Source: a virus. From it: a stretch of 64,000 nt of DNA. Both the position numbers and the translations under genes were made by a program. The stretch lies in the IMG/VR virus record IMGVR_UViG_3300047157_000171; one strand, 5' to 3'. Below are positions 2,380 to 55,518 of this stretch, in pieces (position 1 is the first letter of the stretch; each line of letters opens with the position of its first letter). Under the pieces are notes generated by a model. That model ran no database searches. It saw nothing but the letters and a program-made list of their open reading frames with translations, and was not told the origin of the DNA.

Positions 2380-3288
2380 ATGGCAACAGGTAATTACGGA
2401 ATAAAGAGACCAGCAGATGTTACACCTTCCGATGTGGAGGTTTTTTTACATTATGCTTCAGATAGAGATTCGAATACGGCACCAGTGTTTAAAAAATTAA
2501 ATGCTAGTGATATTTTGTCACCTGTTTTCCATAACGATGTGACAGGTGGTACTCAAGAAACAGAGATGTTAGGGGGTTTATATAACTTAACACTTGAAAG
2601 TGGAGAATTTTCAGATTTAGGGGTGTATAACTTATACATCAGACCAAAAGAAATAAGAACGAATATCACAGATTGTGGTGTGTTATTAACATTACCAAAC
2701 GTTAAGGGGTTGATATTTGACGTATCAAGTATACCATCAGAAGATAGAGGTAAATTTGTGAATAACGGATTGGTTGGGTACAGAATTGAATACTTAGACG
2801 ATAGTGGTAAAAAGATTAGTAACTTCTATAGAGTTATAACGAGTAGTTTTTTCTGTGAACCGATTGTTGCTAATTTAACAAATACAAATCAAAAATCTTT
2901 AAGATATAGATATACGAGTAATCCTACGAGTTTAGTATATTGTACTGTAACTCCGAGTACTGCTCCAACAAATAATCCAAATGAGATTCCATTTATTGGT
3001 GAACCAAACCAAAATGTTATCTTAACCAATACTTACTTTAACCCTGTACACATGGAGGTTGAGTTAGTAGAACACGACGAACAAACATTAGCATACGCAT
3101 TGTATGGTAATCAAACTAAGTCAATTGAAGACGGAATATACACGATTTACGATAAAGAGAATAATATATACAGACAGTATAACTTATTTGAAATACGTGA
3201 TGAAATTAATAATAAATTATATGAGGTCCGTGAAGATAGAATTGATGACATCGACACGTCCAAAGGTTTTGATAATATAGCGAATTAA
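2380..3288 (+). CDS. Hypothetical structural protein (tail/baseplate region)
   Basis: 302 aa; TATTTATA upstream; TAATG-coupled to the 2112-aa gene. Confidence 0.55.
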   Translation: MATGNYGIKRPADVTPSDVEVFLHYASDRDSNTAPVFKKLNASDILSPVFHNDVTGGTQETEMLGGLYNLTLESGEFSDLGVYNLYIRPKEIRTNITDCGVLLTLPNVKGLIFDVSSIPSEDRGKFVNNGLVGYRIEYLDDSGKKISNFYRVITSSFFCEPIVANLTNTNQKSLRYRYTSNPTSLVYCTVTPSTAPTNNPNEIPFIGEPNQNVILTNTYFNPVHMEVELVEHDEQTLAYALYGNQTKSIEDGIYTIYDKENNIYRQYNLFEIRDEINNKLYEVREDRIDDIDTSKGFDNIAN

Positions 3289-9200: not shown

Positions 9201-9626
9201 TCAACCACTATGGGTGACGGTGGTTCGGGTCCGATTACAACGACAACAACTAGAGGAAATAATGAAACAACTTATTGTGTTAATTTTGATTGGTTAGGTT
9301 CTCAGGTAATACCACAATCCTCAGGTAAGGCATATGCTGATAGTACAACAGTTAGTCAAATAACTGAATTCTATTTATATGATGTCGCTTGTGGAAATGG
9401 TGATTTTGATACATTAGCAAACGCATTAACCACGGGTTATGGTCTTACGGTTAGTAGAGGTAATTCGACGGCTAACTTTACTCTTAATTCGTTGACAAAT
9501 AATAGTCAAATGAACTATTGGACTTTAGGGGTTACTTATAATTCAGGAACAGTAACACAGGCGCCCGAAGGGTTACCATGTCATCAACCAAATAACTTCT
9601 GTTTCACACAACCAATACTAAGTTAA
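3288..9626 (+). CDS. Large baseplate-wedge/tail protein with YGG repeat, Hint-like region, Cys modules and Thr-rich tracts
   Basis: 2112 aa; LFKSKGTRKPLRFLLSFIG resembles P2 gpI-like baseplate motifs; low-complexity, Cys-rich C-terminal half. Confidence 0.65.
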   Translation: MANIRFPSNGSGTFSDGLVGGQNTEGNDFTQKNFSEEGTPVVRDTKSFTTSDFSKPISLEDLNSEESIKEVSKLFDQSLKIKFNTEKGSKDLFGSAFLRAKVAVENIANTFPASLRVFKTTTDAQTVDTAYDVVNNLQFNTTTFKIPLRAIRNPLGIEYSNIGLKVFDGQYDSDRNFAKEFTKYVLLFSGVEYKIKKVLLPEDRYNGELSITVHGKPFTGSTQEEFYIKLNDILFEKKFELMDDFEQLLLDRENVPLYEAKFKVPKETSDGSLYFGDEKIKWELSDDFNIVVEGDKFERYLEKLFETCEVIDNYKANLIARFLSTASLQEFDTEGQKVKKIFQLYGRFFDDVKKFIDNIAYMNNVTYDKINNVPDLLLKNLAGLLGLDVITSITDRNIEEYLYKKKDSQFDGLTKGKTPFETDIEIYRRIILNSAYLFKSKGTRKPLRFLLSFIGAPESFVEINEYVYKVINRIDYDKFSEKLDNVIDGEWFESDVDFKTIKVWSEIKEEWLDKSDFQKKYPNVEIDVLGYLENGQLPDGENHGDAYILDKELISVEVQKSGGVYNVDDYPIERVGTSDNSIPKTPTITNDYFFQKGAGWFERTDSHKSVSVLDEERSDLTTSPKTIKTKFEDFTYGEKFYDRYKNFPNFDDGWELKADIDNKKSDSDTNKFILNRKNVDIFLNPGRAVLFDFVRTYQKHSLSYSGVLLNNLTFAQFSEYGFWNGVEVGKGKYGKKYWDLIELFKDYYESGLGKAYDYDLTYAYLNKISTYWIRLVEQFIPATTLWFTGEKVENHNLHRPKFNWEEPCRNDVMSLDLSLAKTLYETLIDSLKKYKNIPDCYERLYRYGNWYLQVKINDKIYQIGGKEWTHFFTSTESDKMGSCNLDNAQPGSPDTCPQYDNPIYMLCDFETYVTCYPDECKDFVTTIVQMLSQISKDIYRDEIADKVSDCDFLCDNDDGLTYVADTVFGSTIKTTSPEVEGLSAFEIEGFKDGEFCYDCHNEIKLITNSYCGECFDIDSLEIGMKVIINEGEGQDDCKDRCFVLENIPFSIDQSQFGGVHYDVNYPDHHIDMLDPRGTVFLTEKFEVVKCVDYDKVYHGTYQYVGGLDTIDRFPVYKHITEDIYLSCYPDAPESVNGDFMFTEGPKGSYTQIYGKLSDKNLLDFTNVFTHSLEWEIDDCITVDDLEEDQNVIRHRYATGDSIGICDRVNDDGFDYVKIWLHGGTFEAQDGTTLPYDMFFDCKEDLVEGETIWYDEAGDVFIVKIKSGENRLIHAYDQSGAPIHIYLKERNTVLVGLDFETDLETIDEYGGYGQYGGYGGYGSYTSYGGYGQYGGYGGYGGYGGYFCYGNEYLFYSNINPYCIGRLDYEIRPECQGYLTDTEFYRVKGETIPYEITIDEVIVGENVETVRVQDINVGDLIIAASPNYGEMDFCDYSEFQYGNESIVCNYTKNIKMVPVMSTSCGRIYKYININEGRVKVEFHHNILVLEDLNKTNSNDLLTTCYTEAPTKPIGTIYNLDGTPSQVFYDNEYQIVGKPANEISIGDYIITTEECGVIEVKSLVYDDYCDEGLFNDKYQIKFDEDMFAWYRPKDGYDTIYINDKCVPYCELICCDEIEMCIDDISISGICIDDISYVIGDVPTTTTSTTEEVTTTTTTKDRRYYDYFNDRGAVTTTTTTEKDVTTTTTTEKPCVCYKTNPYDDRMFVVYKNCDGNQITINKTCNSTICQGIEFSATEILSGQSEVFIVDCEDKTTTTSTTEEPTTTTSTTKDITTTTSTTKDITTTTSTTEEPTTTTSTTEDKTTTTSTTEDKTTTTSTTKDITTTTSTTEEPTTTTSTTKDRTTTTSTTEEPTTTTSTTEDMTTTTSTTEVEPLCVCIEFTHISTGPGRHIGYYDDCDGIQREIMVNPLESEKVCGTGLNISTSDGKLIYQVGEECDIYRKCPSDETTTTTSFREPDDPTTTTSTTEEPTTTTSTTMGDGGSGPITTTTTRGNNETTYCVNFDWLGSQVIPQSSGKAYADSTTVSQITEFYLYDVACGNGDFDTLANALTTGYGLTVSRGNSTANFTLNSLTNNSQMNYWTLGVTYNSGTVTQAPEGLPCHQPNNFCFTQPILS
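7209..7331 (+). repeat. (YGG)n coding microrepeat
   Basis: YGGYGQYGGYGGYGSYTSYGGYGQYGGYGGYGGYGGYFCYG; near-identical 42-nt blocks at 7209 and 7263. Confidence 0.95.
8205..9255 (+). repeat. Mucin-like Thr-rich tandem repeats, 30-nt/10-aa unit (TTTTSTTEEP, TTTTSTTKDI)
   Basis: About a dozen units at 8540-8890 plus shorter tracts on both sides. Confidence 0.95.
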
Positions 9627-9691: not shown

Positions 9692-10786
9692 ATGGGAAAT
9701 ATTAACGATACTAATAACAGGTTAGCCACAGACACTCCAGATACTACTACAACTACTACCACAGGTGGAGTTTCGGTTACGTTTAGTAGTCCTAGTAATG
9801 GACCGTGTAATTTAACATTTACCCCTGATTGTGGTGGGGTAACGACTAATAATAATACATCTAGGGTTGCTACTGACACGCCTGATACACCTACCGTGAC
9901 AATACTGGGTATTAATTTCCCTTACACTTTTTATCCTTCAGAACATGGAGTTGATGATATTTTTGGTACATATACGTTTAATTGTGGTGGTTGTGAATAT
10001 ATAAGAAACATAGAGAGAGTGTGTAACGATAATGATATATCATATACAGTATTAGGTTCTTCTGTTACGACAACAACAACAGAGGATGTTACAACAACTA
10101 GTACGACTGAAGATGTAACAACGACTAGTACGACTGAAGATGTAACAACGACTAGTACAACTGAAGATGTAACGACTACAACCACTTCGTCAGGTTGTAA
10201 AAATTATCTGTTAAAAGCTGATGACCAATTTACGGAGTTTAGATATATTGCGTGTGGTGAAACAAACTACACAACTGTAGGTCTTAATCGAGACACTAGT
10301 AGAGTGGTATGTTCAGAAAATATACCAGTAGTTACTGTTGGTTCGGATAATGCTGAAGTGATTGATACGGGTATAAGTTGTACTGAAGACCCAACAACAA
10401 CGACTAGTACGACTACGGAGATAGAGACGACTCGTTTTTATATTTCAGCAGGAAAACCAATACTTGGGGTGTATGAAGAAGGAACGAACGAAGGTACTGG
10501 GTTCTGTGACAACACATACTTATTATCGGGTGCCCTTTGGGTGGTTGGTAATTTAACACAGACTTCATCTTTACTTAATAAAACAGTATACACCAATAGT
10601 GATATGGATACTTTCATACCTGTCGGATATTATTACGTACACGGAAGTCCGGGTTACCCTAATGGTACCTATGGAGGAGCGGTACCAGGTCAGCAACACT
10701 TAGCAATAAGGGTAGACGCGAATGGTCTTGTTGGTACTGTTGTTAGTCATAATTGTGGAGACCAAGGAGGAGGACAAGACCTTTAA
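9692..10786 (+). CDS. Thr-rich, Cys-module virion-associated protein (paralog of 10807-12114)
   Basis: 364 aa; TTTSTTEDV repeats; N-terminal block shared with the next gene. Confidence 0.65.
   Translation: MGNINDTNNRLATDTPDTTTTTTTGGVSVTFSSPSNGPCNLTFTPDCGGVTTNNNTSRVATDTPDTPTVTILGINFPYTFYPSEHGVDDIFGTYTFNCGGCEYIRNIERVCNDNDISYTVLGSSVTTTTTEDVTTTSTTEDVTTTSTTEDVTTTSTTEDVTTTTTSSGCKNYLLKADDQFTEFRYIACGETNYTTVGLNRDTSRVVCSENIPVVTVGSDNAEVIDTGISCTEDPTTTTSTTTEIETTRFYISAGKPILGVYEEGTNEGTGFCDNTYLLSGALWVVGNLTQTSSLLNKTVYTNSDMDTFIPVGYYYVHGSPGYPNGTYGGAVPGQQHLAIRVDANGLVGTVVSHNCGDQGGGQDL
10066..10190 (+). repeat. 27-nt/9-aa tandem repeat (TTTSTTEDV)
   Basis: About four copies of acaacgactagtacgactgaagatgta. Confidence 0.95.
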
Positions 10787-10806
10787 AAATATAAAAAATA
10801 CGAGAT

Positions 10807-12114
10807 ATGTCTAATATAAACGAAAAAGAAAACAATAACGGTAGTATCAATAATACGTCTATTGATAGTAATGGGAATGGTGATTTAGCTGCTACTGATA
10901 CTACAACAGTTAATGGGAATGGTAGTTTAGACGCTACTGATACTACTACAGTACAACCTTCAACTCAAACGGTTAGGTTTGAACGAATGAGTAATGGTAA
11001 ATGTGATTTAACATTTACCCCAACGTCTACAACATCTACGACTAATAATACGTCTAAGGCCGCTACGGATACGACTGATACGACAACTACACAACCTAAC
11101 AGTGTTAGTATCCCCAACGTGTCTTTTCCTTACGAGTTTGACCCTTTAGACCATGGGTTTAATAGTGTAAATGGGACATATACGTTTGATTGTTGTGGAT
11201 GTCCTTATGTGTTCGTTATCGATGGTGAAGATAATTCTGTAACAACTACTACTACTGAAGAGGTTACAACAACGACAACTAGTAAAGACACTGACCCAAT
11301 AACGACCACAACTACTACTGAAGAGGTTACAACAACGACAACGACTGAAGATGTGTGTGATAACTGTACTACGGTTAGGGTTCGTAAAAATCCGTTATCG
11401 ACTAATGTTAGTTTTGATTATATAGATTGTGATAACAATAGTCAGTCTTATACCTTCCAAACTAAGGTTGCGGTTATTGATTTATGTGTGTGTACAGGAA
11501 GTATACCAAGTAGTGATGACTATACTGTTGAATTTATCGAAGAATGTACAACAGGATTACCGGTATTAACCTGCGATTTATTACAATTCACAGTTAATGA
11601 TGGGGAGAATGGAGAACTTGTTAGTTTTAATAATGGAAGTGGATTATTTATACCGGCTCAGGTAACACCTATTCAATATAATTTAGGTGTTGGAACCTAT
11701 ACTGTTAGTGTTACAGTACCAGATGGATATAGTAACGCAGGTGATACTTTAGAATGTGTGAGTGATGAGGTTATTGTATCTCAAGGTGGTGGTGATACCA
11801 CGACAACATCGACAAAGGGTTCATCTAATGCGTTTTGTGCTAAGGTAACATATGGACCTAACAGTCCGAATACGCTACAAACGCCACAGGGTGGAGAGAT
11901 ATTGGAATTTCAAATAAACCAGATGTTTACATATTCTAACGAAGATGGGGGAGGATTCTTTAGAATATGTACTGACAATGGAGCGTTCTATGTGGTAGAG
12001 AATAATTCGGTGAGAGTAATTCAAGAGAGTGACGATATTGATATTGAATATAATACGGATGATAGATGTACTACTGATGGTTCTGGAAATATTGACTGTG
12101 TACAAAGAGTTTAA
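10807..12114 (+). CDS. Thr-rich, Cys-module virion-associated protein (paralog of 9692-10786)
   Basis: 435 aa; SNGKCDLTFTP...FPYEFDPLDHG...GTYTFDCCGC matches SNGPCNLTFTP...FPYTFYPSEHG...GTYTFNCGGC. Confidence 0.65.
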   Translation: MSNINEKENNNGSINNTSIDSNGNGDLAATDTTTVNGNGSLDATDTTTVQPSTQTVRFERMSNGKCDLTFTPTSTTSTTNNTSKAATDTTDTTTTQPNSVSIPNVSFPYEFDPLDHGFNSVNGTYTFDCCGCPYVFVIDGEDNSVTTTTTEEVTTTTTSKDTDPITTTTTTEEVTTTTTTEDVCDNCTTVRVRKNPLSTNVSFDYIDCDNNSQSYTFQTKVAVIDLCVCTGSIPSSDDYTVEFIEECTTGLPVLTCDLLQFTVNDGENGELVSFNNGSGLFIPAQVTPIQYNLGVGTYTVSVTVPDGYSNAGDTLECVSDEVIVSQGGGDTTTTSTKGSSNAFCAKVTYGPNSPNTLQTPQGGEILEFQINQMFTYSNEDGGGFFRICTDNGAFYVVENNSVRVIQESDDIDIEYNTDDRCTTDGSGNIDCVQRV

Positions 12115-12173
12115 GTGTATACTTAAAGATAGTTTTTATTACATTAATGGTATAATCACATAAAAAATATTGT

Positions 12174-13106
12174 ATGGTAACTATATGTTCACAACCCGAT
12201 AATATATATTTTCATTGGCAAAATCTAATACAGTTCTATAACTTTAAAAAGTTAGGAATTTTAAAAGACCATAGGGCGGTTTTTCTAGTTAGTCAAGGAA
12301 AATCTCCTTCTAAGTTTGTTTTAGAATTTAAAAAACAATATCCTAAAAACGTTTTCATATATATGGACGATAGGATACAAAAACACTACATCCCAACCAT
12401 TAAAATACACGGGGTTGTTAAGTACTTAACGACTGACAGGAAACAACAAGATTTAATGTTAATTGATTCGGACATTATCCTTAACGAAAAAATTGATTAT
12501 AGTAAATTCACAGAAAATAATACGGTATATTGTAGTAACACAAAAGGGTATTTAGGGTATCAATATCTAAAGACTAAGGGGGATGAAATTGTTACAGACA
12601 TGTGTCACTTTATGGGTATTACATTGGACGATGTAAAAGACCAAAATGATAATTCAGGGGGTGCTCAATTATATTATAAAGGTGTTGATGGATTATTAGA
12701 GTATTTTAAAGAGGTTGAGGACAAAGCCCCTAAATTATATGATTTGATGGTTAAACATCCAACGTATAATGATTATAAACCAACAATACAGGCTTGGACA
12801 TCAGAGATGTGGGCAGTGTTATGGTTACTGTGGAAACGAGACGTTAAAACTGAAATACATTCTGAATTAGATTTCAGATGGGCTACTGATGATATTTCTT
12901 TATGGAAGACAAATAAGATACTACATATGGCTGGTGTAACCGCAGGTATGAAAGACGTTTTCTTTAAGGGTGGTTTTATCACAAAGACACCATTTAATAC
13001 TGATTTTGATTATATTAGGGAGAATTCTATCACTAAAATCTATATAGAAGAAATGGAAGAATTAAAGAAAGACCAATCTTTCAAAAACTTAATAGAACTC
13101 CTTTAA
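12174..13106 (+). CDS. SERGT1/HPAT-like (GT96/GT95) peptide O-glycosyltransferase
   Basis: Motifs YFHWQ, IKIHGVVKYL, LIDSDII, SGG and WTSEMWAV occur in the order of plant SERGT1 YFDWQ, NKPVGVLYWL, ILDADMI, VGG and WISEMYGY. Confidence 0.65.
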   Translation: MVTICSQPDNIYFHWQNLIQFYNFKKLGILKDHRAVFLVSQGKSPSKFVLEFKKQYPKNVFIYMDDRIQKHYIPTIKIHGVVKYLTTDRKQQDLMLIDSDIILNEKIDYSKFTENNTVYCSNTKGYLGYQYLKTKGDEIVTDMCHFMGITLDDVKDQNDNSGGAQLYYKGVDGLLEYFKEVEDKAPKLYDLMVKHPTYNDYKPTIQAWTSEMWAVLWLLWKRDVKTEIHSELDFRWATDDISLWKTNKILHMAGVTAGMKDVFFKGGFITKTPFNTDFDYIRENSITKIYIEEMEELKKDQSFKNLIELL

Positions 13107-13158
13107 TTTTCATTCACTTTATTTTTTAATTTAATACTTTTACGTATACAATAGAGCT

Positions 13159-14190
13159 ATGCGAAGACGTAAAAGTAAAATATTTGACATATATATAACC
13201 ACAGGTGCTGGTAACACGGTCGGTGGTGGTTCAGACGTATGGGTTAATAATTGGTTAAAGTTAATACCTAAACATTTGGATATTAAACCAATTCTACTTA
13301 TTGATAATTATAGATTTCAAGGGTTTGAAGAGGACTCAATACCAATAGAACATATTTTCTATAATGAAAGACCTGATGAATCTAAAAGATTATTACAGGA
13401 ATGTCGACACATTCACTTCTTACATAATCATTACACTAAAAGACCTCACTTATGGAAGTATAGGTTTAAGTTTAAGAGTATTGCGGTTCACGCATATGCC
13501 AGAGAGATAGTTGATTCTTATAAGGAGTTAGGATTCTCAAGAGATTCTGTCCCTTTTTTATGGAATGTTGAATGGCAAGACGAATTAATCCGTGAGTGTG
13601 AAACTAAATATTGGGTCGGTTCACAAAGAGGTTTAGTTAACGATATTTTTAACGACTGTATAACAATACCAAATTATTATGAGTTTATATGGAATAAGGA
13701 ATATTTTCATAGTAATGTGGTTGGGTTTGCTGCAAGGGCAGAAACAAGAAAAGCGATTCACTTCTTGGAGAATGTTAGGTCCAATGCTTTTACATCAAGT
13801 AATGGTGTTAAGATATGGGAGAAAAACACTAAAATGAAGTTCAACAATACTAAAATCATTGAGTATAATCCAAACTTAACAGATGAATATTATAATAGTA
13901 GTCTGTTCGGTATATTCCATGGTGCTTATGTTAAAGAACCATTTGGGTATTCAATTCTCCAAGCCGTTGATGCTGGTAAATTACCTATTATATCTAAAGG
14001 GTGGTGTCCAGAGTTTAACTATCCGTATCGAGCGTCGAGTAAAGAAGAGTTTGAAAATATGGTTAAGTTAATACAAAACACAAATAAAGAAACAAGGAAA
14101 AATATCTTTAATTCGGCAAAAGAATTTTTAAAGAAATTTGACAATAAAGACCATTGGGTTGAAAGAATGAAAACAATTTATAATGAATAG
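13159..14190 (+). CDS. GT-B fold glycosyltransferase (GT4-like)
   Basis: N-terminal GGGSDVW loop; EPFGYSILQAVDAGKLPII matches the GT4 EPFG-x-LEA motif. Confidence 0.75.
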   Translation: MRRRKSKIFDIYITTGAGNTVGGGSDVWVNNWLKLIPKHLDIKPILLIDNYRFQGFEEDSIPIEHIFYNERPDESKRLLQECRHIHFLHNHYTKRPHLWKYRFKFKSIAVHAYAREIVDSYKELGFSRDSVPFLWNVEWQDELIRECETKYWVGSQRGLVNDIFNDCITIPNYYEFIWNKEYFHSNVVGFAARAETRKAIHFLENVRSNAFTSSNGVKIWEKNTKMKFNNTKIIEYNPNLTDEYYNSSLFGIFHGAYVKEPFGYSILQAVDAGKLPIISKGWCPEFNYPYRASSKEEFENMVKLIQNTNKETRKNIFNSAKEFLKKFDNKDHWVERMKTIYNE

Positions 14191-15136
14191 AAAATTAATA
14201 GTTTCACGAATGTGGACAAAACGAGGTATACAACAGTACTTCTCATTACTCCAAATATCTAAAGAATTTTGGGACTTTGAAATAGAAGCACATATTCTAA
14301 TTGACGATTGGACACACGATGATGATTGGACTAAGGAGATAGAAAAACTTAATAACCCACATAGAGAAGGGTTTCCGATGAGTGTGGAGTTTTACACCAA
14401 AGAAGAGTTAAAACAATGGTACCATAGTAATAATATTATAGATAAGAGTGTCTTTGATAACATGAAAGGATTTTTACATATTTATCATCTTCTGTTGTAT
14501 TTTTATTTATATGTTGAAAAAGGTATCGATTACTTAGTGTCTTATGATGATGATATCGTGTTTAATAAAAAGGTTAGTCCTGAGTTAAATGAAATCGATG
14601 GTTTAATAGCTAATAAGACACCATTTGTTATTGACGAAGAGTACTTCCCTATGTCTGACAAAAGTATGTTTGTTGGCTTATCTAATTATTTTAACCGTGA
14701 TTTAACACCTGATTATTATAGAAATAATGTAAGGGGTGTTGGTGCCAATGCTGGTTTTATGGGTATAGAAACCTCATCGATATTTAGTTCTTTTAAAGAC
14801 AATTTTATGGGATTATTATCTTTGTTTGATTTCAAATCGCCGAACTTAAAATCTATTGATGAACCTTACCATTATACTGATAAGGTTTTATTCGATACTC
14901 AAGAACAAAGTTTTATGAGTATTATGTTACACTGTTTTGCGACAAAAGAATTGTTTAGGTTAGGTGGGGCATTAGGGTATTTCTTTGATACTCCAATACA
15001 AGAGGCGGTAAATAAGTCTAAATTAATACATTTCACAGGAGACAGAAAATACGACCCACTATTTCCAAAGATTATTATAGATTTTCTAAAGAAACACGGT
15101 CATAACAATATCACACCAGATTGGTTTTATTATTAA
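14183..15136 (+). CDS. GT-A fold glycosyltransferase (GT8-like)
   Basis: YDDDIVF (DxD), ANAGF, EQSF and a late LIHF. Confidence 0.6.
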   Translation: MNRKLIVSRMWTKRGIQQYFSLLQISKEFWDFEIEAHILIDDWTHDDDWTKEIEKLNNPHREGFPMSVEFYTKEELKQWYHSNNIIDKSVFDNMKGFLHIYHLLLYFYLYVEKGIDYLVSYDDDIVFNKKVSPELNEIDGLIANKTPFVIDEEYFPMSDKSMFVGLSNYFNRDLTPDYYRNNVRGVGANAGFMGIETSSIFSSFKDNFMGLLSLFDFKSPNLKSIDEPYHYTDKVLFDTQEQSFMSIMLHCFATKELFRLGGALGYFFDTPIQEAVNKSKLIHFTGDRKYDPLFPKIIIDFLKKHGHNNITPDWFYY

Positions 15137-15142
15137 ATAATT

Positions 15143-16252
15143 ATGTTGGAACCGTTATACAATAAAGAAATATTAGAAGAAGGTATTATTGAAGCATTAA
15201 GGCACATTGATGCTTTTGATGATATTGAAAAGGCGAAAGAATGTCTAAGAACCGCACTATCACCAAATGAAAAATGGGCGATTAATTTACTAAACTCGAG
15301 TGTTAGTGATAATATGAAATTCCACACAATGAATGGGTATAATTTACCGTTTTTTGAAAATGACAGTAATATACCAAAAAGAGCGAAAAATGCTAGATTA
15401 TGTGTCGTATATCAAGTATGGGGTAATCATAACTATTTAAAGTTTTTATACCTATCAATTTTATCACAATTGGCGTATACGGATATTTTAGATTTTGATA
15501 TTAAAATATTTTTAGGAAAAGGATTTGTTAATGATGTAGGTGCGTCATTAATCGACCGATTATTACCTGAAGGGTCTATTATACCTGTTAATGATGGGTT
15601 ATCTTTAAAATATGGATTAACTTCCCATCCACATTTACAGAACTACGACGTAGTTTCTGTTGTTGATACAGACGCATTTTGGTACCACCCTAAAGGTGAG
15701 AAAACTAACGTATACCAAAAAATGTTAGATTTGTATGACTCAGGTTTTGATGGTCTTATTATGGCACCAGACCCTGACTTGGCAAGTTCAGTGTTTTGGC
15801 AAAGAAGAGATACGTTAAACACCAATATACCGGCTGAACATTATAAAAACTATTTCTACAGAAATGCGAATACGGATGAAAAAAGACTTACTGATTTTGT
15901 AGACCATGATAAGAATTGGTTCCTATCATGTCTATTTGTATACGGTAAAAACCAATTTAGAGAACCAGGTTATGGTAAATACGCATTGACCTGTTTATAT
16001 GATGAATTACTTTGTGATGAAACAGTTTGGATGATGTGGGGTCTCGGTCACGATTACGAAATCGAGAACATGAATAATACAGGGTTTTTACGATGGGTTG
16101 GTGCGAATGATTTCGATAGGTATTGGAGCAATGAGAAAAATAGTGAAGATGTTTTGTCTTATATTCATCCTGTACAGGGAGACCATTGTTTTAATATGAA
16201 TTTAATTAAGTTATATGATAAAATAGTAGAAGATTACAAATTAAGTAGATAA
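15143..16252 (+). CDS. Putative GT-A fold glycosyltransferase
   Basis: VVDTDAFW (DxD), CDETVW, YIHP; lies within the GT cluster. Confidence 0.5.
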   Translation: MLEPLYNKEILEEGIIEALRHIDAFDDIEKAKECLRTALSPNEKWAINLLNSSVSDNMKFHTMNGYNLPFFENDSNIPKRAKNARLCVVYQVWGNHNYLKFLYLSILSQLAYTDILDFDIKIFLGKGFVNDVGASLIDRLLPEGSIIPVNDGLSLKYGLTSHPHLQNYDVVSVVDTDAFWYHPKGEKTNVYQKMLDLYDSGFDGLIMAPDPDLASSVFWQRRDTLNTNIPAEHYKNYFYRNANTDEKRLTDFVDHDKNWFLSCLFVYGKNQFREPGYGKYALTCLYDELLCDETVWMMWGLGHDYEIENMNNTGFLRWVGANDFDRYWSNEKNSEDVLSYIHPVQGDHCFNMNLIKLYDKIVEDYKLSR

Positions 16253-17175
16253 TGAAAAGACCCGATTATACTGTAATGTATACTTTACACGTCATGCCAG
16301 AAGAAATACAAGATGTTGGTAGGATAATAAAAGACTTTGAAATATCGACAAAAGAAAACTCAAATGTGGGTGTTACCTTATATATTGATTTGAATTTTTC
16401 AGATGTCTATTATGATTGGACAAATTCTAAAATGACAAAAGAAACTTTTTATAATTTATTTCAAAACTTCTTAACACATTCTAGAAAGAATTTAAATATA
16501 ATACACAATGTAAGAGATACGGGGCATTGGGGTGTTAATTCAACCAGAAGAAACGTGATTAACGAATACAAAGATACGTTTGATTATATTGGTTTTATTG
16601 ATTGTGACATATTTTTTGACCCAGCTGCGATTCAGTATGTGTATAAAACATTAGAAAAAGAGCCGGGAGAATTTATTGTATTCTCTGGTTTATTACCTAA
16701 GATGTGGAACGAACACTTTGATGGTCTCACACATAAAAAATTTAAGAATGTGACTGACAGGTCATTTCCTTTTAAGATTAACCCTTTGAGTGTTTATGGG
16801 TTTCACCAAACTCAGAAAAATGAGGTTGGATATACTTCTGACATTATGATTGGGGGAGGATGGTTTAACGTTTTTTCTACAACGATTTTCGATTACGTAA
16901 CCATACCGACAGAATTAGGGGTTTATGGTATTGATGACCATTGGATTCAAGAATGTTGTCGTTTTCTTAATAAATCAGGGTGGGATATTAAACAATGTTA
17001 TAATAATAAATTTTTAATATTAGAGAACCACGGTCGTAAGTTTAATATGCCAGAGCCTTTTATAGTTAAAAAAATGGTAAATGGGGGTAAATTTGAATAT
17101 GAAAAAAACGCAAAACAAAATTACGAAAGATTATTTAGTGAGTATAAACAAAGTATTATAAGTAAGTATTTCTAA
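16252..17175 (+). CDS. GT2-like glycosyltransferase
   Basis: GVNSTRRNVI...YIGFIDCDIFF; YGIDD acceptor-region motif. Confidence 0.65.
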   Translation: MKRPDYTVMYTLHVMPEEIQDVGRIIKDFEISTKENSNVGVTLYIDLNFSDVYYDWTNSKMTKETFYNLFQNFLTHSRKNLNIIHNVRDTGHWGVNSTRRNVINEYKDTFDYIGFIDCDIFFDPAAIQYVYKTLEKEPGEFIVFSGLLPKMWNEHFDGLTHKKFKNVTDRSFPFKINPLSVYGFHQTQKNEVGYTSDIMIGGGWFNVFSTTIFDYVTIPTELGVYGIDDHWIQECCRFLNKSGWDIKQCYNNKFLILENHGRKFNMPEPFIVKKMVNGGKFEYEKNAKQNYERLFSEYKQSIISKYF

Positions 17176-17177
17176 TC

Positions 17178-18680
17178 ATGAAGTTATTTTTTACTTTTTA
17201 TAGTAAAGAAAGTATTCCTAAGTTACACCACTTCTTCAAACACTACAGAAACTTAGGGGTGACTAATTTTTATGCGATATATCATGCGTATGAAGAATAC
17301 AGTAAAGATGTTTTAGATTATGTGATGGAAAACGCCATGGTTGTTAAGATATGGGACGGGGTCTTTAACGAACATATTAAAGTAAAACACATAAATGATG
17401 CGAGGTTAAAATTCTCAAGTTATGGTGAGTGGTCGTTTACTGTTGATTGTGATGAATTTATAGATATTAGTATTAATGACTTAAATAAGGTGGTTAATAG
17501 TGATGCGAACTATGTGAAGTTTAGTATGATAGACAGGGTATCTAAACCATCACTTAAAGAGGTTACGATTGAAGAAGACATTGGAATAACGTTTCCATAT
17601 TATTCTTTTATTACATATAGTTTATTAGAGGGGGCGATATCTAAAGTGCCTCTATCTGTTCGTGAAGTCATTATTGGTTTAGGTTATCACGATGTCATTG
17701 GAGGGCAAGAACAAGTGGTTAAGTTGAAAAAACATCATTTAAATGGGTATGTTAATCACTTTAAATGGGATAGTGACCTTATCTATACTATGCACGATAG
17801 AGTGACTAATAGGTTAATAGATGACGGAAGTGCTGATGATTACAAAGGAGAATGTGAAGTTGCTTTGTCTTTGGATTATGATAATGTGATTACTTATGAC
17901 AAACCTTTAGAAATGAAATTATTGTTTATTGTTTGGTCCCTTCAGGATTATAATATGTTAAAGCAGTTTTTCATTCATTATAGAAACTTAGGGGTTACCA
18001 AATTCTATTGTATTTTTCATACTTACGGTATGGAAGATAATTTTATTTATGACTTTGTTAAACAAAACGCTGAGATTGTACATCATTGGGATGAGAAATA
18101 TACGACAGAGTGGGAATGTAAACTAAAGAATAAATATAAGAGAGAAATATGTGATGATGAGAACGAATGGGTGTGGTGTGTAGATGCTGACGAATTTGTT
18201 GATGTCTCACCAGACTTTGTAAGGGAAGTTATAGGTAGTGACTCAAATTACGTTAATGGGTGGATGGTAGATAGGTTTTCTGAAGATGGATTAATAGTCC
18301 CATTGGATGATAATATGTTTAAACAGTTCCCAATTAGGACTTACTATACACGGTTTAAATTAAATGGTTCTGCGTCTAAAATTCCACTAACTCGTTCTTA
18401 TGTTATAATTGGTGTGGGTCATCATGTTGTGTTAAATGAAATGTATGATTTTGGTGTAAAGGATGAGAGAGTCTTAATTTCTTATAATGGTAATGAGGAT
18501 GATTGGATTGAAGTTGCTCATATTAAATGGCATTATCAATTGTTAGAGGAGATTTATAATAAATTCACTAAAACAATGAATTTATGTCAATACTCGGCAA
18601 GGGAGATGGGTGTTTTTGTATTGGATTATTGTTATAAGAAAAAACCAATAACTGAAATTATTAAAGACGTGAGAATATGA
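17178..18680 (+). CDS. Tandem two-domain glycosyltransferase (Glyco_tranf_2_4/GT92-like)
   Basis: Internal duplication: HYRNLGVTNFY...VDCDEFI and HYRNLGVTKFY...VDADEFV. Confidence 0.7.
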   Translation: MKLFFTFYSKESIPKLHHFFKHYRNLGVTNFYAIYHAYEEYSKDVLDYVMENAMVVKIWDGVFNEHIKVKHINDARLKFSSYGEWSFTVDCDEFIDISINDLNKVVNSDANYVKFSMIDRVSKPSLKEVTIEEDIGITFPYYSFITYSLLEGAISKVPLSVREVIIGLGYHDVIGGQEQVVKLKKHHLNGYVNHFKWDSDLIYTMHDRVTNRLIDDGSADDYKGECEVALSLDYDNVITYDKPLEMKLLFIVWSLQDYNMLKQFFIHYRNLGVTKFYCIFHTYGMEDNFIYDFVKQNAEIVHHWDEKYTTEWECKLKNKYKREICDDENEWVWCVDADEFVDVSPDFVREVIGSDSNYVNGWMVDRFSEDGLIVPLDDNMFKQFPIRTYYTRFKLNGSASKIPLTRSYVIIGVGHHVVLNEMYDFGVKDERVLISYNGNEDDWIEVAHIKWHYQLLEEIYNKFTKTMNLCQYSAREMGVFVLDYCYKKKPITEIIKDVRI

Positions 18681-23937: not shown

Positions 23938-24627
23938 ATGATACATCCAGAAATTTACAGTTATTTTGATGATAAGGAGGCTTGGAAAAGAAAGTATATG
24001 AGACCTGAGGCTTTATCAATGGAGTGGGATATGATGTTGGAAGAAGTCGGTCCTGACGTATTCCAATTCCCATTATTTAAAGAAGAGTTATGTGCTAAGT
24101 TAATTGAAGAAGCTGAAGCGACACAATCGTGGACACATAAGAGACATGCGTTTTATCCCACTACGGATATGTTAGTGGAGACCTTTGGGTTTGAAGAGAT
24201 ATATCATGAGATAATGGATGAATATATTATGGGAGCAGCAAGACACATTTACCAATTAAATGGTCAGAATTGGGACCAAGGAAATGTATATTCCGAGAAT
24301 TTTATGATACGTTATTCACCTGAAGAACAGGGACATTTATCACTACATTATGACCAATCGTCAATATCGTGTAACGTGGCGTTAAATGACGACTTTGAGG
24401 GTGGTGGTACGTATTTCTCAAGACATAAGGTATTGGCGAAAGCTAAAGGAACGGGTTATGTTACATTTCATCCTGGTCAGATAACACACAAACACGGAGG
24501 GATGCCGACAAACAAAGGAACTCGATATATTATTGTTTCATTTATGAATGATGATAAAAATAGAGAAGACCACATTAATGATTTAGAAAGATTTGCTAAC
24601 GAAAACGGATTCTATAATGATAAATAA
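23938..24627 (+). CDS. PLOD-type lysyl hydroxylase domain (2OG-Fe(II) dioxygenase)
   Basis: HYD...H...R triad; NFMIRYSPEEQ, FEGGGTYF, FHPGQITHKHGG and TRYIIVSF match the LH domain of PLODs. Confidence 0.85.
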   Translation: MIHPEIYSYFDDKEAWKRKYMRPEALSMEWDMMLEEVGPDVFQFPLFKEELCAKLIEEAEATQSWTHKRHAFYPTTDMLVETFGFEEIYHEIMDEYIMGAARHIYQLNGQNWDQGNVYSENFMIRYSPEEQGHLSLHYDQSSISCNVALNDDFEGGGTYFSRHKVLAKAKGTGYVTFHPGQITHKHGGMPTNKGTRYIIVSFMNDDKNREDHINDLERFANENGFYNDK

Positions 24628-34083: not shown

Positions 34084-34824
34084 ATGAAGATTGATAGAGT
34101 TTACGTCATCACAATGGATATGAGTGATGAATACAAAGATGAGTTATTTGAGAGAGTGTTAAATTTACCACTACCTTCAAATACACCTGTTGAGTTTAAA
34201 CAAGGATTTCCCGGTAAGGATTTATTGGAAAGACCTGAAGACTTTCCTGAGTATCGTTTATACCCACATTGGAACCTTAACAATCCAGAGGGTTGGTGGT
34301 GGTGGCAGAGACCAGCGTTATCAGGTGAAGCGGGTGGTATGATATCACATACAATGTGTTGGGAAGATGCGTATGAAAATGGGTATGAGAATATAATGAT
34401 TATTGAAGATGACTTTACAGTGGAAGAACCTATTGATTGGGGTATCTTTAATGAACTTGACGGTTATGAATGGGATTTATGTTTAATGGCTCACAATTCA
34501 TTACACGAACATTTTTCAGATATTATGAAACCTTTAAACATTGGTAGAGAACATTTTATTAGACCAACGTTCTTTTACAATACACATACCTATATACTTT
34601 CTTCGGGGGGGATTCAGAAATTGGTTGAGGACCATTTAGATGTGTTAAAACAAAATATTATTGTATCTGACGAATTTTTATCGGCGGTTACATCATCACA
34701 TCCGAGACCTGATTTGAGAGAGATGTACATAACTAATATGTCAGCGGTGGCGACAAAGGTTAATTATACAGGACAAACTCGAAGTGAAGGTTTGGGTAAT
34801 TCATTAACGGAGACTGAAAAGTGA
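34084..34824 (+). CDS. GT25 glycosyltransferase (COLGALT/LgtB-like)
   Basis: GEAGGMISH..CW, IIEDD, WDL, YNTHTYILS..G..KL, DEFL....SHP. Confidence 0.8.
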   Translation: MKIDRVYVITMDMSDEYKDELFERVLNLPLPSNTPVEFKQGFPGKDLLERPEDFPEYRLYPHWNLNNPEGWWWWQRPALSGEAGGMISHTMCWEDAYENGYENIMIIEDDFTVEEPIDWGIFNELDGYEWDLCLMAHNSLHEHFSDIMKPLNIGREHFIRPTFFYNTHTYILSSGGIQKLVEDHLDVLKQNIIVSDEFLSAVTSSHPRPDLREMYITNMSAVATKVNYTGQTRSEGLGNSLTETEK

Positions 34825-35429: not shown

Positions 35430-36104
35430 ATGGATTATAGAGATATTAACGACTTTGGTCGTTTTGCTAAAGATAAGGGGATTTCAGGAATGAATCTTCA
35501 CTACTTCAACCAAAAAGTAGAAAATTCAATGACACCTTACATTTTAGAGGAGAGAAGTCTTAACGTAACACAGATGGATGTGTTTTCAAGATTAATGATG
35601 GACAGAATCTTATGGGTTTCGGGACCTGTAAATGACCAAATGGCGTCTATTGTACAAGCACAATTACTATTCTTAGATAACATTGATGATAGAGATATTT
35701 CAATGTATATCGATTCACCAGGTGGTTCTGTTAAGGCGGGACTTTCAATGGTTGATGTTATGGACTATGTGAATAGTGATATCGCTACCGTTAATGCGGG
35801 AATGGCAGCATCGATGGGTTCTGTATTGTTAGGTGCAGGAACCAAAGGTAAAAGGTCTTCATTAAGATTCTCACAAACAATGTTACACCAATCATCAGGT
35901 GGTGCGGTCGGTAACATCCAAGACGCTGAGATTTCTATGATTGAATGGAGAAAAGTAAATCAACAGTTATTTGAACTATTAGGTGGTTACTGTGACAAAG
36001 ATGCTGAACAAGTTAAGAAAGATGCGACTCGTGATTTTTGGTTAAGTGCTGATGAGGCCAAAGAGTATGGAATTATTGATGAAGTGATTCGTAAACGAAG
36101 TTAA
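35430..36104 (+). CDS. clpP: ATP-dependent Clp protease proteolytic subunit
   Basis: DVFSRLMMDRI, YIDSPGGSV, AASMGS (Ser), MLHQ (His), RDFWLSADEAKEYGIID. Confidence 0.95.
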   Translation: MDYRDINDFGRFAKDKGISGMNLHYFNQKVENSMTPYILEERSLNVTQMDVFSRLMMDRILWVSGPVNDQMASIVQAQLLFLDNIDDRDISMYIDSPGGSVKAGLSMVDVMDYVNSDIATVNAGMAASMGSVLLGAGTKGKRSSLRFSQTMLHQSSGGAVGNIQDAEISMIEWRKVNQQLFELLGGYCDKDAEQVKKDATRDFWLSADEAKEYGIIDEVIRKRS

Positions 36105-37383: not shown

Positions 37384-38175
37384 ATGGCTAAATACACATC
37401 ACACATCAACCAAGACGAGATATCACATTATCTTAAAGAGTTAAGAAAGATTCCTGTTATAACACCAGAAAGAGAAAAGGAATTGTCTAAAATCATGTTA
37501 AACCCCGATGTAACCCAACGAGAGATTGATAAGGTACATAAAGAATTATTAGAGGGTAACTTAAGATTCGTTATAACAGTAGCTAAAGACTACCAAGGTC
37601 AAGGTATTGATTTATCTGACTTGATATCTGAGGGTAATTTAGGTCTTATGAAGGCGATTAAGTCATTTGATTGGAGTAGAGGTTTAAGATTTATATCATA
37701 CGCAGTATGGTGGGTTAAACAATCAATCTTCCAATGTCTAAATGAAAACTCAAGGACTATTAGATTACCTGTTAATGTTGTGCAAGAAGTACAAAAGGCA
37801 AAAAAACAAGATAAACGTGTGGAGGATATAAACCCACGTCTTAGTAATTTAGCACATGCAATTACCTTCGATGACCATATTAATGAGGAGGGTGATACTA
37901 TGTTCGATTTATTAGAGGATGCTGATGCGGTGATGCCAGATTCAGCTTTGGACGGTAAAGATATAGTTAAAAGACAACTCCTTAATATTATGGATGTCTT
38001 AGACGAACGTGAAAATGCTATCGTTAAAGATTACTTCGGAATCACTGGAACCCCAAGAACGTTAGAGGACATTGGTAATGATTTCGGACTAACAAAAGAA
38101 AGGGTTAGACAAATTAAAGAAAAGGCACTACGTAAGTTACGTAATGAGTCAGACGCAATATTTGACTACTTATAA
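37384..38175 (+). CDS. Sigma-70 family RNA polymerase sigma factor (short RpoD-like, no region 1.1)
   Basis: NLRFVITVAK, DLISEGNLGLMKA, FISYAVWWVKQ, TLEDIG..FGLTKERVRQI. Confidence 0.93.
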   Translation: MAKYTSHINQDEISHYLKELRKIPVITPEREKELSKIMLNPDVTQREIDKVHKELLEGNLRFVITVAKDYQGQGIDLSDLISEGNLGLMKAIKSFDWSRGLRFISYAVWWVKQSIFQCLNENSRTIRLPVNVVQEVQKAKKQDKRVEDINPRLSNLAHAITFDDHINEEGDTMFDLLEDADAVMPDSALDGKDIVKRQLLNIMDVLDERENAIVKDYFGITGTPRTLEDIGNDFGLTKERVRQIKEKALRKLRNESDAIFDYL

Positions 38176-46312: not shown

Positions 46313-47119
46313 ATGAATAATTATTACAAAATTTTAGGATTAAGTAAAGACGCAAGTCAAGAGGACATTAAAAAGTCTTATCGTAAACTTTCTAAAAAAC
46401 ACCATCCTGACATGGGTGGTGATGACGAAATGTTTAAAAAGATTAATGAAGCTTATAGTGTGTTGGGTGATGAGAAAAAAAGAAAAGAACATGATAATCC
46501 AAGACGTAGTTTTGATGATATATTCTCGTCAGGTTTTGGTTCTGATTTTATGGAAAGTATGTTCAATCAAGGTAGGTCTCGCAGATATCGAGGTTCCGAC
46601 ATAAAAATTGACTTAACTATCACGGTAAAAGATTCTATGATGGGGGGTGAAAAGGAAGTGTCTTATTATCGTATGACTAAAGATTTCAGAGAAGAAAGAC
46701 GTAGTATAAAGATTAATATACCACAGGGTGCAGACGATGGTAATCTTTTCAGAGTTTCAGGTGGTGGTAATCAAGGGGAGTCCTCACCGGGAGATTTAAT
46801 TATAATTATTAATATAGGTTCAGATGGTGTGTATTCAAAATCAGGTTTCAACCTTTTTTATAACTTAGAGTTGAACCCTTTAGAGATATTAACAGGTAAA
46901 GAGGCTACGATTGATTTATACCACAGTAAGATTAAAGTAAATATCCCATCGTGTGTTGATATGAATAAACAAATGAGGGTTAAGGGTAAAGGATTTAAAA
47001 CACGAAGAGGTTTTGGTGATTTGTTTATTACATTTAAAGTAAAAACACCAAAAGAATTATCTGAATATGAATGGAGATTAGTTGAACAACTAAAAAAAGG
47101 AGATAATTTTAGAGATTAA
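46313..47119 (+). CDS. DnaJ-class chaperone (J domain plus C-terminal domain, no Zn finger)
   Basis: YYKILGL...KHHPD...FKKINEAYSVL; G/F region; PGDLII; RVKGKG. Confidence 0.9.
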   Translation: MNNYYKILGLSKDASQEDIKKSYRKLSKKHHPDMGGDDEMFKKINEAYSVLGDEKKRKEHDNPRRSFDDIFSSGFGSDFMESMFNQGRSRRYRGSDIKIDLTITVKDSMMGGEKEVSYYRMTKDFREERRSIKINIPQGADDGNLFRVSGGGNQGESSPGDLIIIINIGSDGVYSKSGFNLFYNLELNPLEILTGKEATIDLYHSKIKVNIPSCVDMNKQMRVKGKGFKTRRGFGDLFITFKVKTPKELSEYEWRLVEQLKKGDNFRD

Positions 47120-50301: not shown

Positions 50302-51708
50302 ATGAAAAACAGGTTAACTTTAGTAACGGTTGCGACTCATAAGACGCATGAGTTAGATAGGTTTATTGAGTCCGCTAATTATCACGGATATGACTATGTT
50401 ATATTAGGATTAGGGATGGAATGGACCGGTGGTGTTGCCGATAATGGTCGGTTAGTATTCCCCGGTGGAGGAATGAAAGTGAATCTTCTAAAAGATTATT
50501 TATCCACATATGTGGGGTCGAATAGTGATGTTATACTTTTTACAGATTCTTACGATGTTGTATTCAACGAAAAACCCGATGAGTTATTAAGTAGATGGAA
50601 CGGTAATGTATTATTTACTGCGGAAAAAACTTGTTGGCCTGACAGGGATTTGGAAGAAGAATATCCAAACTCACCTTATGGTTATAAATATTTAAATAGT
50701 GGTGGTTTTATTGCTACAGTTGGTGACCTAATTAATCTAACGGAGACTAAGTGTATGGACCACGACGATGACCAACTATATTACACACTAAAGTTTTTAA
50801 ATGGTGATAAGATTAATTTGGATTATAATTTAGATATATTTCAAACTCTTAATCAGTCTATTGACGATGTTGAAATACATAATGGTAGAGTATATAATAA
50901 AGTGACTAAAACGTATCCTATTGTTATTCACGCTAATGGAGGTGTTGGTCCAAGAACTTATTTAAACAAATTATATAACGATATGAGACAACCAGACCCT
51001 AAGTTAAAACAGTTAAATGGTGATGAAAGAGTGTGTTTACAAATGTTATTTGATAAGAAACATACGAATCCATCAATTATGGTTGAAAGTCTTTCTTACT
51101 TAACCTATGATAAAAGATTGATTGATTTATCGTTTTATAATAATGACAAAGAAAATCAATGGGCGATTGAGAACTACATTAAAAATAATGGAGATAAATA
51201 CAACTCAATCACACAGGTTTATGATGAAAGTAAAGGGGTTTATGAGTTAAGAGAAATGTCGTTTAAGGAGTCTACAGGATATGATGGTGATTATGTATTA
51301 CATAACGATTCATCATTTATTATAAAAAACAAGGATACAATTCAGTTATTAATGTCTGAGGGTAAGGATATAATCTCACCGATGATTAATACTGAACAAA
51401 CGTTTAACTCTAATTTTTGGGGTGGTGTTTCAGACGATGGGTATTATTTAGAAAGTTATGACTATCACGATATTAGAACGTACAATAAAAAAGGAACTTT
51501 TGTTGTTCCATTTATTAGTGGTGTGATAATGTTCAGTAAAGAAATCTTAAAGACTGATTTATTTTCAACTATGTTTAGTGATTTAGATAAAGAGATACTA
51601 AATTACTACAATGAGGACCATATGGTTGTGTTAGCTAATACTATCAGAGATAAGAATCTGTTTATGTATATAACCAATAAAAGATATTACGGAAAATTCT
51701 TTAATTAA
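50302..51708 (+). CDS. PLOD-type glycosyltransferase plus accessory domain (procollagen GT-like)
   Basis: LVTVAT, LGLGMEWTGG, GGGMKV, FTDSYDV, AEKTCWPD, YLNSGGFI, DDDQLYYT, IHANG, SNFWG. Confidence 0.88.
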   Translation: MKNRLTLVTVATHKTHELDRFIESANYHGYDYVILGLGMEWTGGVADNGRLVFPGGGMKVNLLKDYLSTYVGSNSDVILFTDSYDVVFNEKPDELLSRWNGNVLFTAEKTCWPDRDLEEEYPNSPYGYKYLNSGGFIATVGDLINLTETKCMDHDDDQLYYTLKFLNGDKINLDYNLDIFQTLNQSIDDVEIHNGRVYNKVTKTYPIVIHANGGVGPRTYLNKLYNDMRQPDPKLKQLNGDERVCLQMLFDKKHTNPSIMVESLSYLTYDKRLIDLSFYNNDKENQWAIENYIKNNGDKYNSITQVYDESKGVYELREMSFKESTGYDGDYVLHNDSSFIIKNKDTIQLLMSEGKDIISPMINTEQTFNSNFWGGVSDDGYYLESYDYHDIRTYNKKGTFVVPFISGVIMFSKEILKTDLFSTMFSDLDKEILNYYNEDHMVVLANTIRDKNLFMYITNKRYYGKFFN

Positions 51709-54929: not shown

Positions 54930-55250
54930 ATGAAAAAAGTATCATACAGTGAATTTAAAGAGTTACAATCTGGTAACAATAGAATATTCGTAGATTTCTA
55001 CGCCGATTGGTGTGGACCATGTAAAATGATGTTACCTGTGTTAGAAAAGGTGTCTGATGAAATGTCTGAGTCAGGTGTAACCTTTGTTAAGGTTAACGCT
55101 GATGAAGAAAGAGAGTTATCTGCGGAATTTGGTGTTAGAGGAATTCCAACATTTGTTATGATTGACGAAGGTGAGGTTAAAAATAGATTCTCAGGTGTTA
55201 AGGGCAAAGCGGAATTAACCGAAAGTATTAAAGAAACATTCAATGTCTAA
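54930..55250 (+). CDS. trxA: Thioredoxin
   Basis: FYADWCGPCK, VRGIPT. Confidence 0.93.
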   Translation: MKKVSYSEFKELQSGNNRIFVDFYADWCGPCKMMLPVLEKVSDEMSESGVTFVKVNADEERELSAEFGVRGIPTFVMIDEGEVKNRFSGVKGKAELTESIKETFNV

Positions 55251-55518
55251 AGACGTATTCCTATACACAATGGACGGTTGTCCTTACTGTCAAGAGGTTA
55301 AAACATTATTGGATAATGATAATGTTAAATACACTGAGAGAGATTGTGATGAATATGAAATGCAGTATGAGATATTAAAGTCGAATACTGATAATAATGA
55401 GTTTGTTCCGGCTTTTGAAATCAGGGATAATGAAAAAATGTCTAAACGTTTTTTAGTTCCTGATAGAGATTTTGAGGAATTAGAACACGCGGTACATTTG
55501 ATTAAAAAATATATTTAA
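55243..55518 (+). CDS. Glutaredoxin/NrdH-like protein
   Basis: CPYC, FVP. Confidence 0.85.
   Translation: MSKDVFLYTMDGCPYCQEVKTLLDNDNVKYTERDCDEYEMQYEILKSNTDNNEFVPAFEIRDNEKMSKRFLVPDRDFEELEHAVHLIKKYI

Follow-up and report, generated by a model that had tools for sequence, protein, structure and literature searches.

Glucosyl-galactosyl-hydroxylysine (Glc-Gal-Hyl) counts as a hallmark of collagen in animals, and to our knowledge mimivirus is the only viral case of it that has been studied. A 64,000-nucleotide stretch of AT-rich viral DNA (33% G+C; IMG/VR record IMGVR_UViG_3300047157_000171; the whole stretch is called the window below) raises the question of why a bacteriophage would carry genes resembling PLOD, the animal protein in which a glycosyltransferase (GT), an accessory (AC) and a lysyl-hydroxylase (LH) domain follow one another in a single polypeptide. 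An initial annotation of the window described the open reading frame (ORF) at 50302-51708 as the GT and AC part of an animal-type PLOD split in two, with its LH part in the ORF at 23938-24627, and proposed a phage system for glycosylating hydroxylysine (Hyl). Both ORFs lie on the plus strand, 25.7 kb apart, and encode proteins of 468 and 229 amino acids (aa), respectively.

Two genes that together span PLOD

The product of ORF 50302-51708, hereafter GT-AC, comprises a GT domain at approximately residues 1 to 228 and an AC domain at approximately residues 229 to 468. Residues 2 to 226 match the Pfam family GT_PLOD (PF25342) over profile positions 2 to 234 of 246 (E value of 3.6e-64; 216.7 bits against a cut-off of 27). 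When GT-AC was compared with solved structures using phmmer, residues 4 to 466 aligned with chain residues 15 to 492 of human LH3/PLOD3 (E value of 1e-56), mimivirus R699 was matched over its residues 18 to 455 (9.5e-51), and COLGALT1 aligned solely with the AC part, at residues 312 to 464 (2e-16). The motifs DSYD (82-85), HDDDQ (154-158) and HANGG (210-214) are aligned with DSYD, DDDDDQ and HGNG of LH3. Within them, D82/D85 are the counterpart of the Mn2+-binding DXXD motif (D83/D86 in R699) and D156/D157 are the poly-Asp pair (Asp190/Asp191 in LH3); outside them, W112 is aligned with the UDP-binding Trp145 of LH3. No variation is seen at D82/D85, W112, D156/D157/Q158 or H210 among 15 phage homologues that span two phage clades, down to 34% identity. 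An AlphaFold2 model of GT-AC (pLDDT of 87, pTM of 0.81) superposes with template-modeling (TM) scores of 0.87 on the GT and AC domains of LH3 and 0.80/0.84 on R699. These similarities to LH3 and R699 are far beyond chance, and the residue-level resemblance with intact motifs that had been reported for this ORF is borne out.

The alignment with LH3 runs to the end of GT-AC, where the C-terminal FMYITNKRYYGKF is aligned with FLHLSNQHEFGRL of LH3, up to chain residue 492. The ORF thus stops at the boundary between the AC and LH domains, and there is no LH domain fused C-terminal to AC as in a full-length PLOD. That domain is encoded by ORF 23938-24627, a stand-alone LH protein of the 2-oxoglutarate (2OG)/Fe(II) dioxygenase type that lies between a primase and an SbcD-like nuclease gene. 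It matches chain residues 503 to 714 of LH3 (E value of 2.2e-33) and the LH domain of mimivirus L230 (6e-27), and Pfam scans assign it to the OGFOD2-like and 2OG-FeII_Oxy families. H137, D139 and H186, which form the HxD...H iron triad, and the 2OG-binding R196 are aligned with LH3 and invariant in 16 homologues. Because one alignment ends at 492 and the other starts at 503, the two ORFs abut within about 10 residues on LH3, and, as had been claimed, the first stops where the second begins to match. At the sequence level they make up a complete PLOD (LH3 residues 15-492 and 503-714). A structure prediction of GT-AC in complex with the LH protein gave no answer (score of 0.02) and counts neither for nor against re-association of the two chains.

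Relative to animal LH3/PLOD3 (and PLOD1 and PLOD2), the window genes therefore keep the collinear order of GT, AC and LH and the catalytic residues of both active sites, at 30 to 36% identity, but divide them between two genes 26 kb apart. This division is not unique. A protein of about 460 aa with two tandem Rossmann-like domains (GT and AC) and no LH domain is what defines the R699 type, and GT-AC has exactly this build. R699 of Acanthamoeba polyphaga mimivirus (PDB entries 9dyt, 9dzs and 9e92) is 458 aa long, compared to 468 for GT-AC, and shares with it the DXXD motif and the Trp. R699 is also a proven galactosyl-hydroxylysine (Gal-Hyl) glucosyltransferase of collagen (PMC9546862, PMC12279948), in which the DXXD motif is essential (PMC9546862), so a stand-alone GT-AC enzyme was already known. 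Mimivirus likewise encodes collagens and keeps R699 apart from its LH gene, L230, and from the GT25-like R655. The two proteins differ in sequence (approximately 28% identity) and in setting (an amoeba host versus a bacterium). R699 forms an antiparallel homodimer with a 2K-1E triad (K222, K438, E54), which may or may not extend to GT-AC. Given that R699 has the same architecture and that mimivirus also scatters its LH and GT25 genes, the "split PLOD" has a precedent: the separation of GT-AC from LH stands, its singularity does not. We use "split" as a description only, as fission or fusion may have occurred, in either direction.

A third gene completes the set. The ORF at 34084-34824 on the plus strand, between Rad50-like and ClpP genes, encodes a single-domain glycosyltransferase of 246 aa that matches Pfam Glyco_transf_25 (GT25; E value of 3.6e-9; 37.2 bits, the cut-off being 24). 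Among proteins of solved structure it comes closest to human COLGALT1/GLT25D1, in the catalytic domain (E value of 1e-6, aligned over COLGALT1 residues 375-522 only); the sole bacterial GT25 structure among the matches listed (8xlz) had an E value of 0.95. Residues EDD 108-110 are aligned with the EDD of the COLGALT1 catalytic domain. COLGALT proteins join a noncatalytic N-terminal GT-A domain to the GT25 domain; the phage protein consists of the GT25 domain alone and its similarity to COLGALT1 is weak, and it is GT-AC whose AC domain resembles the N-terminal domain of COLGALT1. On the strength of these matches, the GT25 protein is a predicted hydroxylysine galactosyltransferase and GT-AC, of the R699/LH3 type, a predicted galactosyl-hydroxylysine glucosyltransferase.

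Lysine-rich collagen genes, phage relatives and domain fusions

A phage pathway for modifying Hyl calls for a collagen-like substrate, and a search of the full genome for Gly-X-Y proteins had been suggested at the outset. None was found within the window. Walking downstream along metagenome contigs that are 98.6 to 99.9% identical to it led to three tandem collagen genes, approximately 9 to 18 kb past the window end (contig L014, positions 10001-18581, equivalent to approximately 73033-81613 in window coordinates; L014 is 98.6 to 99.5% identical to the window in the overlap). They encode proteins of 938, 971 and 948 aa, each built of an N-terminal domain of about 90 aa, 666 to 708 residues of Gly-X-Y and a C-terminal Peptidase_S74 chaperone, and Pfam Collagen matches them with E values of 1e-65 to 1e-84. 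Lys is the commonest Y residue (73 to 89 per chain) and is nearly absent at X. Pro occupies X positions (63 to 80 per chain) and is rare at Y (no more than about 5). Collagen lysyl hydroxylases recognise X-Lys-Gly (PMC9546862), and the Y-position Lys residues conform to this motif, which supports the fibres as substrate. The presumed substrate motif is thus the one that animal LH3 meets in its Gly-X-Y helices. The setting differs, in that there is no sign of an endoplasmic reticulum, the phage fibres have little Pro at Y, and Pfam scans covering part of the window ORFs showed no prolyl hydroxylase gene.

The three paralogues are of near-equal length, have differing N-terminal domains, and carry an S74 chaperone each; they may form homotrimers or a heterotrimer. 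The window itself holds short GGY/GQY repeats (GGYGQYGGYGGY...) at 7212-7319, inside an ORF of the virion-gene part (3288-9626; 2,112 aa), and these are not collagen-type triplets.

The GT-AC gene belongs to a family with a stable genomic position. An identical GT-AC protein is present on many marine metagenome contigs, and its homologues fall into two clades. In clade A, GT-AC proteins that are 48 to 99% identical lie on phage contigs of 40 to 158 kb with the same gene order. GT-AC is at the same place in relatives at 48 to 55% identity, and in the most divergent relative that was walked (48%) GT25 follows the Rad50-like gene and LH precedes the SbcD-like gene, as in the window. Clade B, represented by five IMG/VR records of 100 to 199 kb (CheckV completeness of 34 to 66%), has GT-AC proteins of 476 to 480 aa that are about 35% identical to that of the window, with the same gene order around the gene. 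A homologue of the LH protein (45 to 48% identity) was found in four of these five records, with a paralogue beside it; GT25 (60 to 62% identity) in two; and collagen ORFs of 988 to 1,773 aa in all five, with Lys most frequent at Y in the pieces inspected. AC and LH are encoded separately in these relatives too, and GT25, at 60 to 78% identity and the same genome position, is the best conserved enzyme of the set. The tandem LH-like genes of clade B (L100/L104, L101/L105 and L102/L106, in genomes G006, G003 and G004) are 45 to 48% and 30 to 35% identical to the window LH, which hints at two hydroxylase specificities.

The assignment to tailed phages rests on a tail-sheath match in two syntenic relatives, both among the five clade B records and one of them above the Pfam cut-off, and on PHROG matches to phage primase, SbcD and RuvC. 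A search of the clade B records for the capsid family of nucleocytoplasmic large DNA viruses gave no match, nor did it in the controls. A contaminating or eukaryotic contig can be discarded as the source, since proteins identical to GT-AC turn up on phage-like contigs in more than 100 blocks of the metagenome collection. A megablast of 20 kb of the window against GenBank phages returned no match. Judged by primase, the closest relatives in culture are Flavobacterium phages, and their identity of 32% is too low to name the host.

Elsewhere the domains of the window genes occur fused. P0054 (718 aa), which nests inside clade B and whose contig shares the same gene order, combines GT25, GT and AC; P0063, which groups with sequences from giant-virus metagenome-assembled genomes (MAGs), has the same build; and P0176 (922 aa) adds LH to it. 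The PHROG family phrog_61, filed under auxiliary metabolism as "2OG-Fe(II) oxygenase," is GT25+GT+LH without AC, and the window GT and LH proteins map to consecutive stretches of it (positions 213-416 and 433-636). Two members come from phages in culture. Gene product gp031 of the Synechococcus phage S-CAM9 (613 aa; L117:2365-4206, KU686206.1 34413-36254), annotated as hypothetical, consists of GT25, GT_PLOD and LH-like domains; it adjoins two more 2OG oxygenases and comes directly after an 1,830-aa tail fibre (AOV60630; L117/L118) with a Gly-X-Y run of 177 residues, in which Lys takes 22 of 59 Y positions. In the Roseobacter podophage CRP-6, gp58 (589 aa; MK613348.1, L119:4467-6236) has the same three domains and lies two genes after tail fibre gp60 (L119:2624-4090), which has 297 residues of Gly-X-Y with GAKGQKGE repeats. 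These proteins and mimivirus L230 resemble the window in setting a viral PLOD-type GT and an LH domain beside collagen-like proteins, but they fuse the domains without AC (GT-LH in L230, GT25-GT-LH in the phages), whereas the window has three genes and an AC domain. GenBank phage genomes already contain PLOD-type GT and LH domains, under no other annotation than "hypothetical" or "2OG-Fe(II) oxygenase."

Two further arrangements were seen. A phrog_61 gene at L077:9371-11215 comes after a 1,335-aa collagen+S74 gene and two small 2OG oxygenases. P0015, P0031, P0043, P0059 and similar proteins of about 692 aa, a large metagenomic group, join a PLOD-type GT to a methyltransferase (PF13489/PF08242) and a GT2_4-like domain.

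Linkage was also assessed more widely. GT_PLOD homologues were located at 80 viral loci, and an LH-like domain lay within 10 kb at 47 of these, a collagen ORF at 42 and a GT25 at 33. A pattern-based scan of bacterial and archaeal species genomes found only 16 loci, none with more than the GT domain, and the four closest to the window protein (36 to 42% identity) were linked to LH and GT25. It had been conceded in the initial annotation that the homologues might prove to be widespread bacterial glycan glycosyltransferases with no link to LH genes. This was not the case: nearly all of the closest homologues have LH-like genes linked to them, and only distant ones (28 to 33% identity), in cultured Bacteroidota, have no LH, GT25 or collagen neighbours. 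On an Arenicellales MAG chromosome (OZ241837.1, 324118-336753; L123), tblastn gave an LH-like, a GT25 and a PLOD-GT hit in a row, adjoining a 494-aa ORF with 156 Gly-X-Y residues; the locus may be that of a prophage or may represent a cellular form of the system.

A candidate pathway and its alternatives

Homology, intact catalytic motifs, fold, substrate genes, conserved gene order and domain fusions were all observed directly. From homology to LH3, COLGALT1 and R699, enzymes whose activities are established (PMC9546862, PMC12279948), we infer enzymatic activity, the acceptor, the identities of the sugars and the order of the steps. GT-AC is likely to be an active UDP-sugar glycosyltransferase of the R699 type and the last enzyme of a three-gene phage pathway acting on collagen lysines. 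The pathway would run in the cytoplasm of the infected bacterium, on the still unfolded chains of the three fibre proteins. The LH protein, with Fe2+, 2-oxoglutarate and O2, would convert Y-position Lys (X-Lys-Gly) to 5-hydroxylysine; the GT25 protein would transfer galactose from UDP-Gal to yield Gal-Hyl; and GT-AC, with Mn2+, would transfer glucose from UDP-Glc to yield Glc-Gal-Hyl. The C-terminal S74 chaperone would then nucleate the trimer, ending modification. The sugars may stabilise, solubilise or shield a very basic triple helix free of hydroxyproline, or may serve in host binding. The proposal made at the outset, that the phage glycosylates hydroxylysine, gains support in this way from the GT25 gene, the collagens rich in Y-position Lys, the conserved gene positions and the three-enzyme fusions.

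Several points weigh against this pathway. The fibre genes were read from near-identical metagenome contigs and not from the window itself. The enzyme genes are scattered, 22 to 49 kb from the collagen genes, so that linkage within the genome is by co-occurrence only. The similarity of GT25 to COLGALT1 is modest, and the GT25 family also includes lipopolysaccharide (LPS) enzymes. Acceptors other than collagen exist for the GTs of the window, where one GT2-like match was obtained among the other ORFs scanned. Finally, the GT domain of L230 puts glucose directly onto Hyl (PMC9546862), and the order of sugars could therefore differ in the phage.

The last of these points underlies the alternative that survives best, although we consider it unlikely: GT-AC would place its sugar directly onto Hyl, as L230 does, or would transfer a sugar other than glucose, and GT25 would serve another glycan of host or phage. 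Donor and acceptor specificity cannot be fixed from sequence alone, and the COLGALT1 match of E 1e-6 to a family that Pfam describes in terms of LPS biosynthesis leaves room for such a role of GT25. Yet GT25 is fused directly upstream of GT_PLOD in many viruses, including a clade B relative, and its rank as the best conserved of the three enzymes (60 to 78% in relatives) also speaks for a part in the same pathway. GT-AC, moreover, shares its architecture with R699, which did not act on Glc-Hyl.

Somewhat less probable again is an acceptor outside collagen, such as Ser/Thr-rich virion proteins, host envelope glycans (in superinfection exclusion) or DNA, with the likeness to collagen enzymes reflecting a shared fold. 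The GT2-like match elsewhere in the window would fit, as would the distant Bacteroidota GT_PLOD homologues that lack LH, GT25 and collagen neighbours, and a study of pelagimyophages read the GTs of these marine phages as LPS modifiers (PMC7029224). A shared fold accounts poorly, however, for 30 to 36% identity, in GT and AC alike, to enzymes whose specificity for collagen is known, or for the retention of the acceptor-side poly-Asp pair and Trp. It also fails to explain why LH and Lys-rich collagens co-occur in two deep phage clades and why LH-domain fusions are common, as an LH domain has no role in the glycosylation of LPS or DNA.

A decayed, noncatalytic GT-AC kept as a structural or chaperone-like collagen binder is highly improbable, even though animal PLOD1 and PLOD2 keep the GT fold while being regarded as weak or inactive glucosyltransferases and the AC domain is noncatalytic in LH3, since all metal and donor motifs are invariant down to 34% identity and the confident model superposes on active enzymes. 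A three-enzyme pathway on phage collagen thus remains the preferred reading.

Lineages, gene surroundings and implications

In an unrooted maximum-likelihood tree from which R699 was left out (support given as ultrafast bootstrap/SH-aLRT), clade A (100/99) and clade B (100/100) join (98/95), and animal PLODs form a separate clade (100/100). A split supported at 95/93 sets animals and phages against the giant-virus MAG sequences, so that the phage clade, unlike the latter, stands on the animal side; the order among animals and phages is not resolved. Recent capture from an animal was rejected, because the phage clade is not nested in the animals and gene order is kept across phages at 30 to 55% protein identity. 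Judged by the tree and by this synteny, the phage GT-AC genes are old residents of a deep phage lineage.

The three enzyme genes of the window are surrounded by replication and miscellaneous phage genes. Pfam and PHROG scans identified primase, a RuvC-like resolvase, an SbcD/Rad50-like nuclease and ClpP, as well as a sigma factor, DnaJ, Dam methylase and DUF932. Among these neighbours are ClpP (35430-36104), a sigma-70-type factor (37384-38175) and a full DnaJ (46313-47119); thioredoxin and glutaredoxin are encoded at 54930-55518, and one might speculate that they could keep the LH iron reduced.

The initial annotation knew of no such system in tailed phages, and a full-text literature search likewise found no description. 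The same search, which many subscription journals lie outside, returned no paper connecting phage fibres with lysyl hydroxylase or hydroxylysine. For collagen-like proteins of bacteria, hydroxylation by other dioxygenase families has been predicted (Iyer et al. 2010). New here are the tailed-phage setting, an LH domain and a GT25 domain that each stand alone as a protein, collagen-S74 fibres very rich in Lys, and the breadth across phage lineages.

This breadth raises a wider possibility. Hyl O-glycosylation of collagen-like fibres could be widespread in tailed phages, in at least three unrelated lineages: the large uncultured marine myoviruses to which the window belongs, T4-like cyanomyoviruses (S-CAM9) and the roseophage CRP-6. 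The phage clade that bears the AC domain shares a branch with animal PLODs without being nested among them, and the animal toolkit could thus descend from a prokaryotic or viral one. We hold this combined view only tentatively, and on balance we doubt it. S-CAM9 and CRP-6 are in culture, which makes the idea testable now, with S-CAM9 as a cultured test case for phage hydroxylysine glycosylation.

If the idea is correct, the chemistry of LH, GT25 and galactosyl-hydroxylysine glucosyltransferase would run in the bacterial cytoplasm and act on phage fibres with a length of about 200 nm (estimated from about 700 helical residues), and a function would be at hand for genes now labelled "2OG-Fe(II) oxygenase" and "LPS glycosyltransferase" in many marine phages. 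It would also supply small, bacterially expressible enzymes for glycosylated recombinant collagen, a need stated previously (PMC9546862), and deep-branching sequences that would bear on the origin of animal PLOD and COLGALT.

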